From contig CAWGMQ010000006.1 in assembly GCA_963823665.1 (NCBI GenBank), positions 128,001-192,000 of the forward strand: a stretch of DNA of 64,000 nt, in the 5' to 3' direction. Numbering within the stretch: the first letter of the stretch is position 1; every line of letters begins with the position of its first letter. This DNA is from an uncultured Planctomycetota bacterium. Lineage in GTDB: Bacteria; Planctomycetota; Planctomycetia; Isosphaerales; Isosphaeraceae. Positions 58,839-64,000 of the stretch are shown in pieces. Under the pieces are notes generated by a model, which made no database searches, had not been told where the DNA came from, and worked only from the letters and a program-made list of their open reading frames with translations. A program made the translations under genes and the position numbers.

Positions 58839-59465
58839 CTACAACCCCGCCGCCTTCGCCAAAGCCAGCATCTCCTCGAGCATCGACCTCAAGTAAGGGC
58901 ACTTCGCGACCGCTATCGCCGGATCAAGCTGTGTGATCAGGCCTTTCCCGTCAGTTACCTTCTTGTAATTCTTCTTCAAGCGCCGTTTGTAAATCGCATC
59001 TAAGAGTTTTGCCGGTGGCTTGACAAAATTGACTTGCTCGGGCTTGGCGATTTTTCCAGGAAGTGCTTCTTTCACTTCGGTCGCGAAAATCTCCGGCTGA
59101 CTGAGCAACCAGGCCTCGAATTCGTGCACAGCGAAGAACATCCGAAACCTCGGCCGGCCAACCTGCTCCTGAAAATGCTGAACACCCCATTCGTATCGCT
59201 CTTGAGCAGAGCCCACGTTGCTCGGATAGAACGTCGGACCATACAGGTCGAGAAGCCCGATTACGGCGACGATGTCTGTTTGATCCGGCCCGTCCAGGAA
59301 GCTCTGAGCCTTTCGAACAAGCTTGCGAGCCAGTTCAGCCCAACCGTCGAACCGCACCACCTGCATTCCCACGCGCTGCGTGAGTTGCGGATCCAGCCAA
59401 CGTTTGAGAAACGCTGCCGCGGCTTGCTTCTCCGTCTCGCCTTCAACCACCAGGACAAACTTCAT
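58839..59465 (-). CDS. DUF4276-family (TOPRIM/RloB-like) protein
   Basis: VLVVEGETE, GLLDLYG, VHEFEAWLL, PEQVN..PPAK, YKKVTDG, KCPY. Confidence 0.85.
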   Translation of the reverse strand: MKFVLVVEGETEKQAAAAFLKRWLDPQLTQRVGMQVVRFDGWAELARKLVRKAQSFLDGPDQTDIVAVIGLLDLYGPTFYPSNVGSAQERYEWGVQHFQEQVGRPRFRMFFAVHEFEAWLLSQPEIFATEVKEALPGKIAKPEQVNFVKPPAKLLDAIYKRRLKKNYKKVTDGKGLITQLDPAIAVAKCPYLRSMLEEMLALAKAAGL

Positions 59466-60658
59466 TTCATCGCTTCCAGTTCACTCGAACGGTACAGTTC
59501 GCCGAGCGTATAGTCCTTCAGCCAGTACGAGAGAGTTTCACCCGAAACGACTCGCAGAACTGTTTCTCCATCCTGACGTTCCACGACAGTCGTGGTCGGC
59601 GGGTCGTCGCCAAATGCGTTAAGGAACTCAGGTGAATGTGTCGTCAGGATCACCTGAGCCTTCGTCGCGGCCTCGCGTGCATACTCCGCGACGATGGGCA
59701 GCATCGACGGGTGCAGCCCCGTCTCGGGCTCGTCAATCGCAATCAGGGGCGCCGGCGACGGATTGGCCAGCACGGCGAGCAAGAAAAGAAACCGCAACGT
59801 GCCGTCCGACAGGTCGGCGGCGGACTGTTCACGTTTCAGGCTTCGCCAGCGAATCCGCATCTGGATTCGCTGATCTGCGGCCGGTGGAAATACCAGCTTG
59901 TCGAAGTCATCCCCGAACGCTGCCCGCATCGCCTTATTGACCTCGTTTTCAAACTCGCGATCGCTCGTGTAGAGGCTGTGCAGGACGGAGACCAAGTTCT
60001 GGCCGTCGGCGCTCACTTCGGTCTCTGCGCGCGTCACCTGCGGTGCCCGGACCTGCGCGTCGCGATGAGTTTGAAAACCCTGGTGAATCTTCCAATCCGC
60101 CAGTTCCTGCTGGAACGCAGCCACGGACCGGTTCGCCGTGAACGGTCCTGCGGCCATGGAGAGCAGCGTTTCCTCTTCGGGTACGGATTCCGGCGGAGCC
60201 ACGAACTTTTGCGAGTCCATTGAGTACACAATCGCATGTTGCGGATCGCGCTGCAGGAACAAGAACGGGTGCAGGTTAGCACGCGTTTCCACGAAGAAGA
60301 AGTTTCCAAGAATCTCCTCATCGATCCGATACGCACTCGAAGTGCCGAGTCGCCCGAGCGTCAGTTCATATGTCACAGCCTCCTTCTCTTCGTCGGTATA
60401 CGGTGGAATCGGAGTCAGTTTCGCGCGCAGCCGTACCCGATCTACCTGGCCGTCCCACAAAATCGGGTCCATGCCACCTTCCTGCTGAACGTAACGCCCG
60501 AGTCCTCCACGCGCGGCTACGCTGAGCGTCTCGAGGACGCGCAGCAGATTCGACTTGCCGCTCGCGTTCGGCCCGATCAGGACATTCAAGTCACCAGGGC
60601 ACCACGTCTGCGATTTGAGCGACCGAAAGCCATCGACTACCAATTTGATGATCTTCAT
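59462..60658 (-). CDS. ABC/SMC-like ATPase (AAA_21 type)
   Basis: GFRSL, GPNASGKSN, LSDGT, IAIDEPETGLHP, TTHS; ATGA overlap with the DUF4276 gene. Confidence 0.92.
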   Translation of the reverse strand: MKIIKLVVDGFRSLKSQTWCPGDLNVLIGPNASGKSNLLRVLETLSVAARGGLGRYVQQEGGMDPILWDGQVDRVRLRAKLTPIPPYTDEEKEAVTYELTLGRLGTSSAYRIDEEILGNFFFVETRANLHPFLFLQRDPQHAIVYSMDSQKFVAPPESVPEEETLLSMAAGPFTANRSVAAFQQELADWKIHQGFQTHRDAQVRAPQVTRAETEVSADGQNLVSVLHSLYTSDREFENEVNKAMRAAFGDDFDKLVFPPAADQRIQMRIRWRSLKREQSAADLSDGTLRFLFLLAVLANPSPAPLIAIDEPETGLHPSMLPIVAEYAREAATKAQVILTTHSPEFLNAFGDDPPTTTVVERQDGETVLRVVSGETLSYWLKDYTLGELYRSSELEAMK

Positions 60659-61230
60659 CCTACGTCTCCGTTACCCGGCCCGCAAAGCGTAGAGCACGTT
60701 CTACGGCGACACGAATTCGGGACGATGAGCCCCCTCGCCGGATAAACGGCGATGTCGATCTGTCCGCAGCCAACGCCGGCATTGCGAAGGAACGCAACCA
60801 ACGTGTTCAGTCCAGCATTCTCGATAGTGCCAAGCTGCATAGTTCGACGGCGACGCATCCCCTCCTCAACAGTGCGCACCCGCACTTCCTACGAGTCTAT
60901 TCTCTCCGTGGAATCGTTCAAAGGCCACTGCAACGGCGGTTTGGCTCGTTTTTCACTTCAACCCCCTCCTTCAGGAGCGTCTCGACCGCCTCGTCGAGCT
61001 GCGGCCCTTGAATGTCCTTGTATCGGACGACACCCTTGCGGTCGGAAAAAGGTGCCACGAAACAAAGGTGTCAGGAACCTTTCTCGAAGCCCTGGGTTTC
61101 GACGAGAGCACAAGGAATTCTCTCGACGACCAAAGGCCGACACTGCGAACTGCATCGCCAACAGCGTTCGGCGATCTGGCTAACGACCGCTCACGACAGC
61201 GGCTCCGCGTTCCATCAGTACGATGTCCCG

Positions 61231-62781
61231 TCAACTGGACTCTTCACGGGGCCGAGCGGCCGCGGATCGAAGTTCGTGGGCTATGGCCACGTACTCCGAA
61301 ATCAACTCCAGCAACGGCTCCGTTCTTGCAGTCAGCAGGGCCGCCTCCTCCTTGGTGTCGATGTTGATGACGCCATACTCGCGGAACGAGTCCCCACTTA
61401 CCAGCGCTGGGACAACCGGAACGGGGACGGAGACGAACTGCACGTACGGACTTGCACGCTTTGGACCGGCCGCGTCCTGATAAAGGTCGCTAAGCGCGAG
61501 CTTTTCGCCGGCGGTCTTGGAAATGACGTCGGCGGACTTCAGCCCGCGCGACAGGAGGGGGTCTGCCTTCGGGTCGGTCGCCAGCAGTGCGTCCCGCACG
61601 CGGTCGTATTTCTTCAGCTTGCGCAGCCGATCGAAATCACACCTGCGGTCCTTGTCATGCGGCCAAGCCAGCAACCGGCCCTCAAGCAGCGCCCACGCGG
61701 CTACCGTTTGCGGGTAGCTGAACATCGAGTGTGCTGCCGATCGCGGCGCCAACATCCGATGGCGCAAGACCCGTCGGGGACCGCCAACGACCAGGGAGGC
61801 GAAGCTCACGCGAATCTGCCGGCCTGGGAAAACCTGGGTCTTGAGATAAACCGCGATGTCGTCCATGAACTCGTCCAGCTCCGTTACACTCCGGAGGGCC
61901 TGGAGGCGCGCCCGCACGTCCGTGGTTGACACCTGAACCGGCCCAGGTGCTGGGATCGACTCCAGGTATTTGGGCAGGTCGGTATACTCCTTTCCGTACG
62001 AGACTGGTTCGATTCCGAGCCGCCGCAACACGACGTGCTGCTCAGCCGACGGCGTCCCGTTCATCAGGAAGAAGTGGGCGGCAGAATTCTCGAGCAGCGG
62101 CCCGGCCACTCGAGAGAATTCCGCCAGAAGTGTGGACAGATGGGGGTCACTCACCCCGTCAAGGCTACACCCGACGAACAGCAGCACCCCGCTGTGAAAC
62201 ATGGATCGGACCACGGTCTCCTTGTCCGGTGCGGACAGCTTGATCCGCGCGTAATCATCGCCTGACAGGATAACCGATTTCGGCCAATCGTACCGCCCAT
62301 GCAAGTGGATGATTCCCGACCCCGTCCGCAGGACTTCCAACATTTGTTTGGGGTCCAGCCAGGTGGCCAGCTCGGCGTCAGGGATCACTGCCTGGTCCCT
62401 CAGGATCAGGTCGCAATTGGTAGTCAATATGATTCGGGAATCCAGGCCGCGGATAGCGGCGATCAGCCCGGTATCATTAACTGTCGGTGACCCAAGACAG
62501 GTCTGCAGAAACACCTCGTAGTCCTGTCCCTCCGCACCACCCAGGGCCTGCTGCAATTTCGTGAAGCCTAGCACGAGTTCTCCGGTTTCGTGCAAGACAT
62601 TGAGTGCCTTCAGGCTTTGCTCGGTGGTCCCCGGTCGCCTTGCAAGGAACTCGATTCCTTTCTTCAGGAGGCCGTTCCAGTCAGGCAAGTCACTCACCGC
62701 CCGGGACACACCCGCGCCAACGAGGGGCACGAGGTTCCGGTTCTGCCAGGCCTTGCGGATGCGGGGATCGACGATTGGCAT
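61231..62781 (-). CDS. SIR2-like (SIR2_2) NADase-family protein with a C-terminal GAF-like domain
   Basis: VPLVGAGVS, LPDW, ILTTNCD, IIHLHG, LLFVGCS..DP; the C-terminal FVSVPV..YGVINIDT..LLELISEYVAIA pattern resembles GAF. Confidence 0.85.
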   Translation of the reverse strand: MPIVDPRIRKAWQNRNLVPLVGAGVSRAVSDLPDWNGLLKKGIEFLARRPGTTEQSLKALNVLHETGELVLGFTKLQQALGGAEGQDYEVFLQTCLGSPTVNDTGLIAAIRGLDSRIILTTNCDLILRDQAVIPDAELATWLDPKQMLEVLRTGSGIIHLHGRYDWPKSVILSGDDYARIKLSAPDKETVVRSMFHSGVLLFVGCSLDGVSDPHLSTLLAEFSRVAGPLLENSAAHFFLMNGTPSAEQHVVLRRLGIEPVSYGKEYTDLPKYLESIPAPGPVQVSTTDVRARLQALRSVTELDEFMDDIAVYLKTQVFPGRQIRVSFASLVVGGPRRVLRHRMLAPRSAAHSMFSYPQTVAAWALLEGRLLAWPHDKDRRCDFDRLRKLKKYDRVRDALLATDPKADPLLSRGLKSADVISKTAGEKLALSDLYQDAAGPKRASPYVQFVSVPVPVVPALVSGDSFREYGVINIDTKEEAALLTARTEPLLELISEYVAIAHELRSAAARPREESS

Positions 62782-62847
62782 AGACCACCAGCCATTTCAT
62801 CTTGACCAACGGACCGCACCCGTCCCGATCGGGGTGCGGCTGCCGGT

Positions 62848-63402
62848 TTACTTCACCTGCTGTTTTACCCACCGCCGCGTCTCTGCCGGGGTGCGCAGCC
62901 GGACCACTCTGAAGTGAGGGTTTCCACTACCCGCAAGCAAGGACTCGTACTGGATGCGCCGCGGCCGATGCGATCGGAGAGCCCACCGCAGGACTGACCG
63001 CGGTCCGAGGACGCGGCGCAAGGTTTCCCGGTTGCCGTTGGAGAATGTTTCCCCTGTGCACAGCCGGCGGATCGTCCTGCGAAGGACCCGTCGGAGCACG
63101 ACGGGGAGTGAGTAGTCCATCCACAGGACCAGGTTCGCACGGGCCAGGATGGTATCCTGGACGATGGAGTAGTTGCCGTCGACCACCCATCGGTCGACAC
63201 CCGTCTGATCGTCAACGCGTGCCCGGAACTGCGCGTCGGGCACCTCGACCCAGTTCGGTTCGTACCGCAGGGCGTCCAACTCGATGTGGCGCAGTCCAAG
63301 GCGGCCGGACAGTAGCCGTGCGAGGGTCGTTTTGCCGCACCCAGTTGGACCCACGATGGCGATGCGCGAGTTGCTGGACTGATCATGAATTCCCGAGCGT
63401 AT
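62848..63402 (-). CDS. Adenylate-kinase-like P-loop kinase (FlaR/topology-modulation type); start uncertain
   Basis: RIAIVGPTGCGKTTLA, HIELD, WVVDGNY, VLWMD, NGNRE; an ATA at 63402 follows GGAGG. Confidence 0.85.
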   Translation of the reverse strand: MRSGIHDQSSNSRIAIVGPTGCGKTTLARLLSGRLGLRHIELDALRYEPNWVEVPDAQFRARVDDQTGVDRWVVDGNYSIVQDTILARANLVLWMDYSLPVVLRRVLRRTIRRLCTGETFSNGNRETLRRVLGPRSVLRWALRSHRPRRIQYESLLAGSGNPHFRVVRLRTPAETRRWVKQQVK

Positions 63403-63444
63403 ATGGACTGCCTCCGCCCCGTCCGCACTCGTATCGGTTCGTCG

Positions 63445-63999
63445 CTACGCCAGCGGGGAGGGCGTCGGCGGCCAGCGCCACATGATCTCCTCAATGTGCG
63501 CGAACGGCAGACTGTCGACAAGGGCTCGCAGTCGGTCATAGTATTCGCGCTGGGTGAGCCCTGCCGCGGAGGACCCGGCGGCGGCAACAATGTCATTGTA
63601 CTTCCCTTCGATGGCCAGGAACGGTTTCAGGGCCGACAACAACTCCGACGACCAATCGTCGCCGAGCCCGGCGAACGCTTCGCGGATGTCGACGGCCCGG
63701 TCCGGGCTCGGGTATCGGCCCAGCCGTCCCAGGACGCGGCGCATGAGGTGAATCGGGAAGCTCTCCGCCTGGGAAAGGAGACTTAACTGATCAGCGGTCA
63801 GCGAGCCGTCTGCGGCCAGTTCGAGTGTGTTGAACGGTTCCTGCGCCCACCGCGCACCTATGGTCGAGACGTATTTCAGAATATCGTCTTTTCGGACAAT
63901 CGGGTCGTCCTGGACCGCTGAGAGGAACCGCTGATGAAACTCACGCCAGGGATCACCCTTGCGGACCGCCAGGCTCCCGACGTGGTCGGAGAACCGGAG
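63445..63999 (-). CDS. C-terminal part of an unknown helical protein, running off the window edge
   Basis: The frame is open from the window end (LRFSDHVGSLAVRKGDPWREFHQRF...) to TAG at 63445. Confidence 0.7.
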   Translation of the reverse strand, partial: LRFSDHVGSLAVRKGDPWREFHQRFLSAVQDDPIVRKDDILKYVSTIGARWAQEPFNTLELAADGSLTADQLSLLSQAESFPIHLMRRVLGRLGRYPSPDRAVDIREAFAGLGDDWSSELLSALKPFLAIEGKYNDIVAAAGSSAAGLTQREYYDRLRALVDSLPFAHIEEIMWRWPPTPSPLA

Positions 64000-64000
64000 G

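Follow-up and report, generated by a model that had tools for sequence, protein, structure and literature searches.

Each new sensor fold in the nucleotide-signalling immunity of bacteria has so far brought a new messenger chemistry, namely gcADPR, His-ADPR, N7-cADPR, dITP and p3diT, according to a recent review (PMC13434031). Among the closest described systems are Thoeris and Kongming. Many ThsB proteins of the TM-macro systems (Thoeris type II) are described in PMC11204291 as having an NDT-like Tyr/Glu active site and performing base exchange, and the Kongming preprint uses KomC H146A as its inactive control (10.1101/2024.12.20.629578). Genes of the SIRim clade of SIR2 proteins are 12-fold enriched near defence genes (10.1101/2024.09.18.613514), and a GAF-like domain has been reported on a Septu nuclease (PMC11381338). 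Here we describe P0001, a protein that joins a SIR2 domain to a GAF domain. It is encoded near the end of a 64,000-nt stretch of a planctomycete genome labelled G000 (G000:C6:128001-192000, hereafter the window), next to genes for a P-loop kinase (P0003) and a candidate nucleotidyltransferase (NTase, P0002). On our best reading, P0001 belongs to an undescribed family of GAF-sensor effectors with exchangeable nucleotide-enzyme partners, and this family is the lasting result of the analysis; the three-gene set of the window is a rare local variant rather than a conserved core, and its unity is unproven.

An earlier note on the window, made from its sequence, had claimed a SIR2 domain in P0001, and Pfam located SIR2_2 at residues 117–259 (E 1e-12; 48.8 bits against a cut-off of 24.5). 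Residue H161 lines up with H146 of KomC, as counted in the profile alignment; among 17 sequences H161 is invariant and N122 is retained in at least 90%, and P0001 has the motif TTNCD in place of the usual TTNYD. The best PDB matches of the family profile were human FAM118B (E 5e-28), KomC (8zsf, 1.5e-16) and an NAD-dependent deacetylase (9v0g, 9e-13), and DSR2-type entries and ThsA (2.5e-8) were matched as well. FAM118B was also the best PDB match when a single sequence was used (E 3e-11), the SIR2 domain being encoded at window positions 61950–62781. ThsA models cover only residues 120–244 of P0001, and the match to Lamassu LmuA only residues 8–264. The N-terminal part of P0001 is an immune-type SIR2, a predicted NADase in which the catalytic His is retained.

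In the C-terminal 237 residues of P0001 Pfam returned no match. An AlphaFold2 model of this region reached a pLDDT of 91, the top Foldseek rows were GAF domains with a probability of 1.0, and alignment of the model to 3trc by VIA-align gave a Z of 14.9 and a root-mean-square deviation of 3.2 over 164 aligned positions. The GAF-like domain proposed in the earlier note was hence confirmed as a GAF fold at the level of the model. Invariant polar and aromatic residues are found along the GAF core (Y356, W363, Q435, Q448, N473 and D475) and suggest a putative ligand pocket.

A total of 73 stored proteins carry this GAF domain: 55 SIR2 forms (P0020 was placed among these by hand), one TIR_2 form, two with a CAP12/Pycsar-type TIR, four with an unassigned N-terminus and 11 fragments. 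The TIR of P0025 was matched by the CBASS effector TIR model (E 1e-41), and in a quick tree of 75 GAF domains the TIR fusions branch off at different points among the SIR2 forms of one clade. The GAF domain appears to have been shuffled among NADase-type effectors, a pattern that fits a dedicated sensor module. It was also seen fused to N-termini without a Pfam or PHROG name in P0024, P0026, P0055 and P0159, which are possibly regulators or new effectors. The family is small, with about 16 full-length clusters in the best 150 matches of one search and 50 proteins in another. Across 400 further genomes from the same class as the window, the matches lack the GAF part, all those outside G000 ending by position 323 of the 521-position profile; no member was found in viral contigs or plasmids, and the search for longer fusions also found none, which is weak evidence. 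Neither PADLOC nor NCBIfam has a model that names the system, the matches being partial and to SIR2 only, in agreement with the earlier note, which knew of no named system of this composition. Nor was a SIR2-GAF or TIR-GAF system found in the full-text literature searched; that literature does not extend to papers behind subscription, to supplements of bioRxiv preprints or to the survey of nucleotide-centric conflict systems by Burroughs and colleagues (2015), any of which may list the architecture.

Pattern scans yielded 17 homologous loci, 11 from metagenomes and six from GTDB, which were reduced to 13 non-redundant ones by merging L006/L007/L036, L009/L014 and L039/L040; the upstream position was informative in seven, six having at least 2 kb upstream and one a HAD gene directly upstream. 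Nucleotide-handling enzymes adjoin the GAF protein in 12 of the 13 loci, the thirteenth (L010) being a 1.2-kb contig and too short. Seven loci (L004, L005, L006, L008, L013, L035 and L039) possess an overlapping or adjacent DUF4406/NDT-like gene of about 200–220 codons, with Y33 and E141 invariant in all six products compared; DUF4406 was recognized in five of these six, below its cut-off, and PHROG 355 was matched at E 6e-5. By comparison with NDT motifs, the Tyr of strand 1 and the Glu are putative catalytic residues. PADLOC produced no ThsB match for this partner. The effector of L035 is the TIR-GAF (CAP12-TIR) form, and the NDT-like gene is retained beside it (pair at L035:9275-11262; compare L004:7149-9343), so the pairing of GAF and NDT-like protein outlives an effector swap. 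SIR2-GAF, or CAP12-TIR-GAF, together with the DUF4406/NDT-like protein is, as judged from sequence, a conserved Thoeris-like two-gene pair that is not in PADLOC.

Five further loci (L009, L011:7128-11460, L012, L037 and L038:6956-12495), actinobacterial where named, encode a PP-loop enzyme (SGGRDS), accompanied by a CMP-kinase-like protein in four, NUDIX in three, an upstream HAD protein in three and a PLP enzyme in three, in varying gene order. We regard this set as a candidate modified-nucleotide signalling cassette. Its combination of an adenylating enzyme and a nucleoside monophosphate (NMP) kinase parallels the NTase and kinase of the window in theme only, the proteins being non-homologous by tblastn. 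A cluster at L076:7590-13220 combines a PP-loop protein, a NUDIX-HAD fusion, a DUF6024/PLP-like protein and a TPR-ATPase, with no SIR2-GAF.

A separate undescribed operon with a distant NDT-like gene was seen in 10 of 200 genomes of the family of G794 and in G151 (L053-L062, L067-L075, L048/L063). It encodes a protein of about 460 aa without a Pfam match (ATP-grasp-like by eye), the NDT-like protein and a variable third protein, which in five cases has multiple transmembrane (TM) segments and a GAF-like C-terminal motif, in four is another TM protein and in two is an AAA ATPase. Comparison of these TM proteins with the GAF family by hhalign gave a probability of 5.7% only.

The three closely spaced, co-oriented minus-strand genes described in the earlier note are present in the window, and the one cut by its edge was completed from the genome sequence (Table). 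The gap of 66 nt that the note gives between the kinase and SIR2-GAF genes was reproduced; its 42 nt for the NTase-kinase gap holds only with an ATA start at 63402, and the distance to the ATG at 63386 is 58 nt. No in-frame ATG was found for the kinase in this assembly, the ATG at 63386 being 2 nt out of frame. The sole outside contig displayed at the kinase 5' end (run X3, depth 2.7) has two bases fewer at window position 63368, which would put the ATG in frame, and a 2-nt assembly error is therefore probable, the alternative being a frameshifted allele. A 222-nt outside contig bridges the kinase-SIR2 junction with zero differences, and the NTase-kinase junction is spanned by none of those listed; their coverage is patchy, and the source of the window may itself be among the soil runs. 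No RNA data set was listed as containing the region, a result that carries no information on expression. Beyond the window, a HEAT-repeat gene (G000:C6:196873-201101) is seemingly split into two overlapping frames, which suggests more assembly indels.

Table. Features at the distal end of the window, in window coordinates.
Feature	Position	Strand	Remarks
SIR2-GAF protein P0001	61231..62781	-	516 aa; residues ~1-278 SIR2_2/SIRim, NADase-type by prediction (N122, H161, D212); residues ~280-510 GAF fold with helical insertion
FlaR-like P-loop kinase P0003, annotated as 'adenylate kinase'	62848..63386	-	Walker A GPTGCGKT; open reading frame 62848 to ~63400; ATG at 63386 out of frame in assembly
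NTase candidate P0002, 3' part	63445..64000	-	3' end at 63445; full 316-aa gene G000:C6:191445-192395 (window-equivalent 63445-64395); G43-S44...D55-x-D57 outside window
16-nt dispersed repeat, one copy	61064..61079	+	second exact same-strand copy at window-equivalent 64715-64730
AAA_21 ABC-ATPase (59462-60658) and DUF4276/TOPRIM-like protein (58839-59465)	58839..60658	-	HEC-01-like candidate defence pair

The middle gene had been read as an NMP-kinase-like P-loop protein, in line with its match to AAA_18 (E 4.5e-7). The FlaR-type model NF005994 was matched at E 1e-20 with 74 bits, below its equivalog cut-off of 215, and by its profile matches P0003 is a relative of the FlaR-like kinases (NF005994/NF005576), not the equivalog; in 100 same-family genomes no homologue was found at E<=1e-10. 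As for the edge-cut gene, the earlier note had named a nucleotidyltransferase as an outcome that would support its proposal, and the evidence obtained points that way. P0002 contains the motif hG[SG]x9-13DhD at residues 42–58, which arose in 54 of 20,000 shuffles and is retained in its one homologue (89%). In the ESM Atlas, the clusters with a name that lie nearest to it are NTP_transf_2 (0.95; 164 of 256 features shared, where 170 is typical of the same family). We consider P0002 a candidate Pol-beta-superfamily nucleotidyltransferase. That homologue was the only one besides P0002 itself among 8000 candidates scored (173–553 aa); a search of 400 further genomes from the same phylum as the window gave weak partial matches in four only (E >= 2.9e-4), and none was found in 361 genomes of the phylum of G794, in viral contigs or in plasmids.

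In the quick tree P0001 groups with P0004, a relative at 80%, within the clade associated with NDT-like genes (26 rows, SH-aLRT 90), on a branch of 0.97. A search of G000 (92% complete) for an NDT-like gene gave none. P0001 is off consensus at 15 of the 66 GAF positions that are conserved, against 0–12 in 14 clade relatives. These changes cluster at W437, V438, Q441 and H445, and the altered stretch 439–445 is common to P0004. Since the only NTase homologue and P0004 are each listed on an ENA contig 122,827 nt long, the source of P0004 probably keeps NTase and SIR2-GAF together. In G256, a genome of the same genus, a match of 90% extends as far as the stop of the sigma-factor gene upstream of the trio; beyond it G256 has different cargo, the trio region being missing at the matching site, and hence this region is accessory.

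Our combined best explanation, to which we assign somewhat less than an even chance, is a GAF-gated NAD+-depleting effector with the NTase and kinase as local replacement partners. P0001 would be a ligand-gated, NAD+-depleting effector built like ThsA, with GAF in place of SLOG. In a first step, which we think rather probable, a nucleotide-derived signal would bind the GAF pocket and cause oligomerisation, SIR2 would hydrolyse NAD+ and the infected cell would stop; this is drawn from the domain content and its folds, the catalytic residues, the exchange of effectors and the partner genes, and activation is modelled on SLOG in ThsA. The signal enzyme would be exchangeable by clade, being either an NDT-like glycosidase with Tyr and Glu, for cleaving or exchanging bases, or the PP-loop/CMP-kinase/NUDIX/HAD/PLP nucleotide-modification set. 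In a second step, for and against which the chances look about equal, this genome would have lost the NDT-like partner, and the co-oriented NTase and kinase would have taken its place; they may make or mature a new ligand (nucleotidylated or phosphorylated), the GAF pocket having drifted to fit. We counted for the second step the tight spacing of the set (58 and 66 nt) compared with the gaps around it (715 nt to the upstream ECF sigma gene and 572 nt to the downstream AAA_21 gene), the NTase motif and its NTP_transf_2 neighbours in the ESM Atlas, the shared contig, the failure to find an NDT-like gene in G000, the clustered GAF changes and the missing region in G256.

Several findings weigh against this explanation, above all against the three genes as a unit. 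The conserved three-gene system proposed in the earlier note did not hold up: SIR2-GAF homologues occur without these neighbours, and tblastn detected a homologue of P0002 or P0003 in none of the 13 other loci, a match of E 0.012 lying 9 kb off in L038 having been set aside. Other nucleotide enzymes stand there instead, the partners elsewhere being NDT-like proteins or PP-loop sets. The proposed reading of a nucleotide signal survives for the effector family, whose GAF domain has moved between effectors of the NADase type, and not for a conserved set of three genes. It is possible, if on the unlikely side, that the family serves signalling defence while the copy in the window, after loss of the NDT-like partner, drifts within a patchwork of cargo, the NTase and kinase being unrelated accessory genes such as small-molecule-modifying enzymes. 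The empty count of homologous neighbours favours this, as do the branch length of P0001 and its having the most substitutions at conserved sites of both domains. In the SIR2 part, too, P0001 has diverged furthest (10 of 74 conserved positions, against 0–6 in relatives), and since the excess of changes in GAF over SIR2 is non-significant by hand calculation, relaxed selection fits as well. FlaR-like kinases are common as stand-alone accessory genes, with 32 plasmid records, and neither of the two plasmid regions opened shows an NTase or SIR2 neighbour beside the kinase; the 5' end of P0003 itself is out of frame in the assembly. Blocks elsewhere in G000 that are bounded by the same 16-nt repeat as the trio contain unrelated genes. 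P0002 has no Pfam, NCBIfam, PADLOC, PHROG or PDB-sequence match, its structure model (from two sequences) reached a pLDDT of 37 and is unusable, and support for the trio amounts to two close relatives, one of them inferred from matching contig size and for NTase and SIR2-GAF only. Against a drifting orphan stand the intact reading frame and catalytic residues of the SIR2-GAF protein, the probable presence of NTase and SIR2-GAF on one contig across 11–20% protein divergence, the outside contig that suggests an intact kinase frame, and the nucleotide-handling nature of both neighbours, the theme of 12 of the 13 other loci. Between replacement synthases and an orphaned, drifting copy we see the balance as close to level.

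Other alternatives concern what the NTase and the GAF domain do. We think it improbable that the NTase restrains SIR2-GAF, in a guard or antitoxin logic, through an inhibitory ligand (as for CloB, HalB and OptS) or by nucleotidylation, with phage disturbance freeing the NADase. Such logic has a precedent in Clover and Hailong, where NTase mutants are toxic since the NTase restrains the effector (PMC13434031), and the NTase-first order would fit an antitoxin-first operon; most family members, however, are without any NTase. Similarly, there is little likelihood in our view that the GAF domain is not a sensor of a small signal at all, either serving as a protein-binding or oligomerisation module (for a phage protein or a partner enzyme, as in KomBC and SIR2-HerA) or belonging to a family for the metabolic control of nucleotide-modifying clusters, not defence. 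GAF folds are versatile and fold likeness alone shows no function; the same GAF is borne by possibly regulator-like N-termini (the four proteins named above), and no copy was found in the viral contigs or plasmids searched. The actinobacterial sets look much like biosynthetic clusters of small size, and one PP-loop and NUDIX cluster, in G1014, has no SIR2-GAF within 16 kb (one of two matches in 251 genomes). All 11 distant NDT-like loci lie in another operon with no close GAF relative, which also counts against a dedicated link between the two. What speaks for a sensed signal are the invariant core residues, which suggest a pocket, the fusions to SIR2_2 and CAP12-type TIR, typical of cell-killing effectors, and the enrichment of SIRim-clade genes near defence genes cited above.

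The defence-like neighbourhood claimed for the trio was borne out in part. Downstream lies one HEC-01-like candidate pair, the ATPase (398 aa) giving a strong match to HEC-01A (E 2e-64) and its neighbour one to HEC-01B (E 2e-15); upstream there are an ECF sigma factor and then fibronectin-repeat and HEAT-repeat proteins, the latter two read from translations. This AAA_21/DUF4276 pair is part of the same accessory region and separate from the SIR2-GAF unit. A coupling of the two was considered and rejected, the pair being unseen among the open reading frames printed for the other loci (part of the list). The GC content at third codon positions is 0.75–0.78 in the three genes, within the 0.73–0.82 of host genes, and lower in the pair (0.67–0.70); codon composition does not distinguish the trio from host genes, and a promoter and terminator scan of the locus stayed at chance level. 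The 16-nt repeat has 44 exact copies in G000, is intergenic and forms several same-strand pairs 0.8–14 kb apart, lying once beside a duplicated gene start (L078/L083). One pair brackets the three-gene set, a weak hint of a block or cassette boundary.

A bolder version, which we hold doubtful, is that the GAF family forms a new immune-signal receptor beside SLOG, SAVED, STING and Macro, connected to three or more unrelated modules that make signals, with the window as a recent partner replacement and a re-tuned pocket. If it were true, the NDT-like enzyme, the PP-loop set and the NTase-kinase module would each yield a novel nucleotide messenger, the actinobacterial set pointing to a modified nucleotide, and the window's variant would represent one receptor rewired to a new synthase. 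First functions would follow for the DUF4406-like enzyme and possibly for the FlaR-like kinase. The two-gene SIR2-GAF and NDT-like pair is compact, its natural TIR-GAF swap offers a built-in control, and NAD+ would serve as the read-out for ligand isolation.

Compared with the described systems, Thoeris, Kongming and Lamassu each fail on a defining feature, and CBASS fails on the sensor. Unlike Lamassu with a SIR2-type LmuA, the locus has no SMC-like LmuB, the nearby ATPase being HEC-01A-like. CBASS/Pycsar, Clover and Hailong resemble the locus, with its candidate NTase, in having an NTase beside a cell-killing effector and a sensor shuffled among effectors including CAP12-type TIR; however, P0002 has no match to CD-NTase or other defence models in PADLOC or NCBIfam, the sensor is of neither the SAVED nor the STING type and no cNMP-binding domain, and the P0001 effector is neither a dNTPase nor an ion channel as in Clover and Hailong. 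With Kongming the family has in common a SIR2 effector (KomC) and a signal proposed to arise from nucleotide modification and kinase steps, but among the five genes scanned no KomA deaminase or KomB HAM1-like match was found, the sensor is fused rather than a separate subunit, and the locus has a kinase gene of its own, where Kongming makes use of the kinases of phage and host (10.1101/2024.12.20.629578). FAM118B (SIRal) of the SIRim-SIR2_2 subfamily is the closest PDB sequence match of the P0001 SIR2 domain, far ahead of KomC, DSR2 and ThsA, a likeness taken from match scores and not from a tree; it has no GAF domain and is described as only a weak NADase when alone (PMC12700824). From Thoeris the family differs in that its sensor is GAF, not SLOG or Macro, and in its DUF4406-like partner in relatives, and P0001 differs from type I in having no adjoining TIR ThsB and no NDT partner in the window, its neighbours being the kinase, NTase and AAA_21 genes. 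What the family shares with Thoeris type I is a SIR2 domain, a predicted NADase, joined to a C-terminal, putatively ligand-binding domain, and its main clade, like Thoeris, has a layout of two genes, one for a small, putative Rossmann-like glycosidase.

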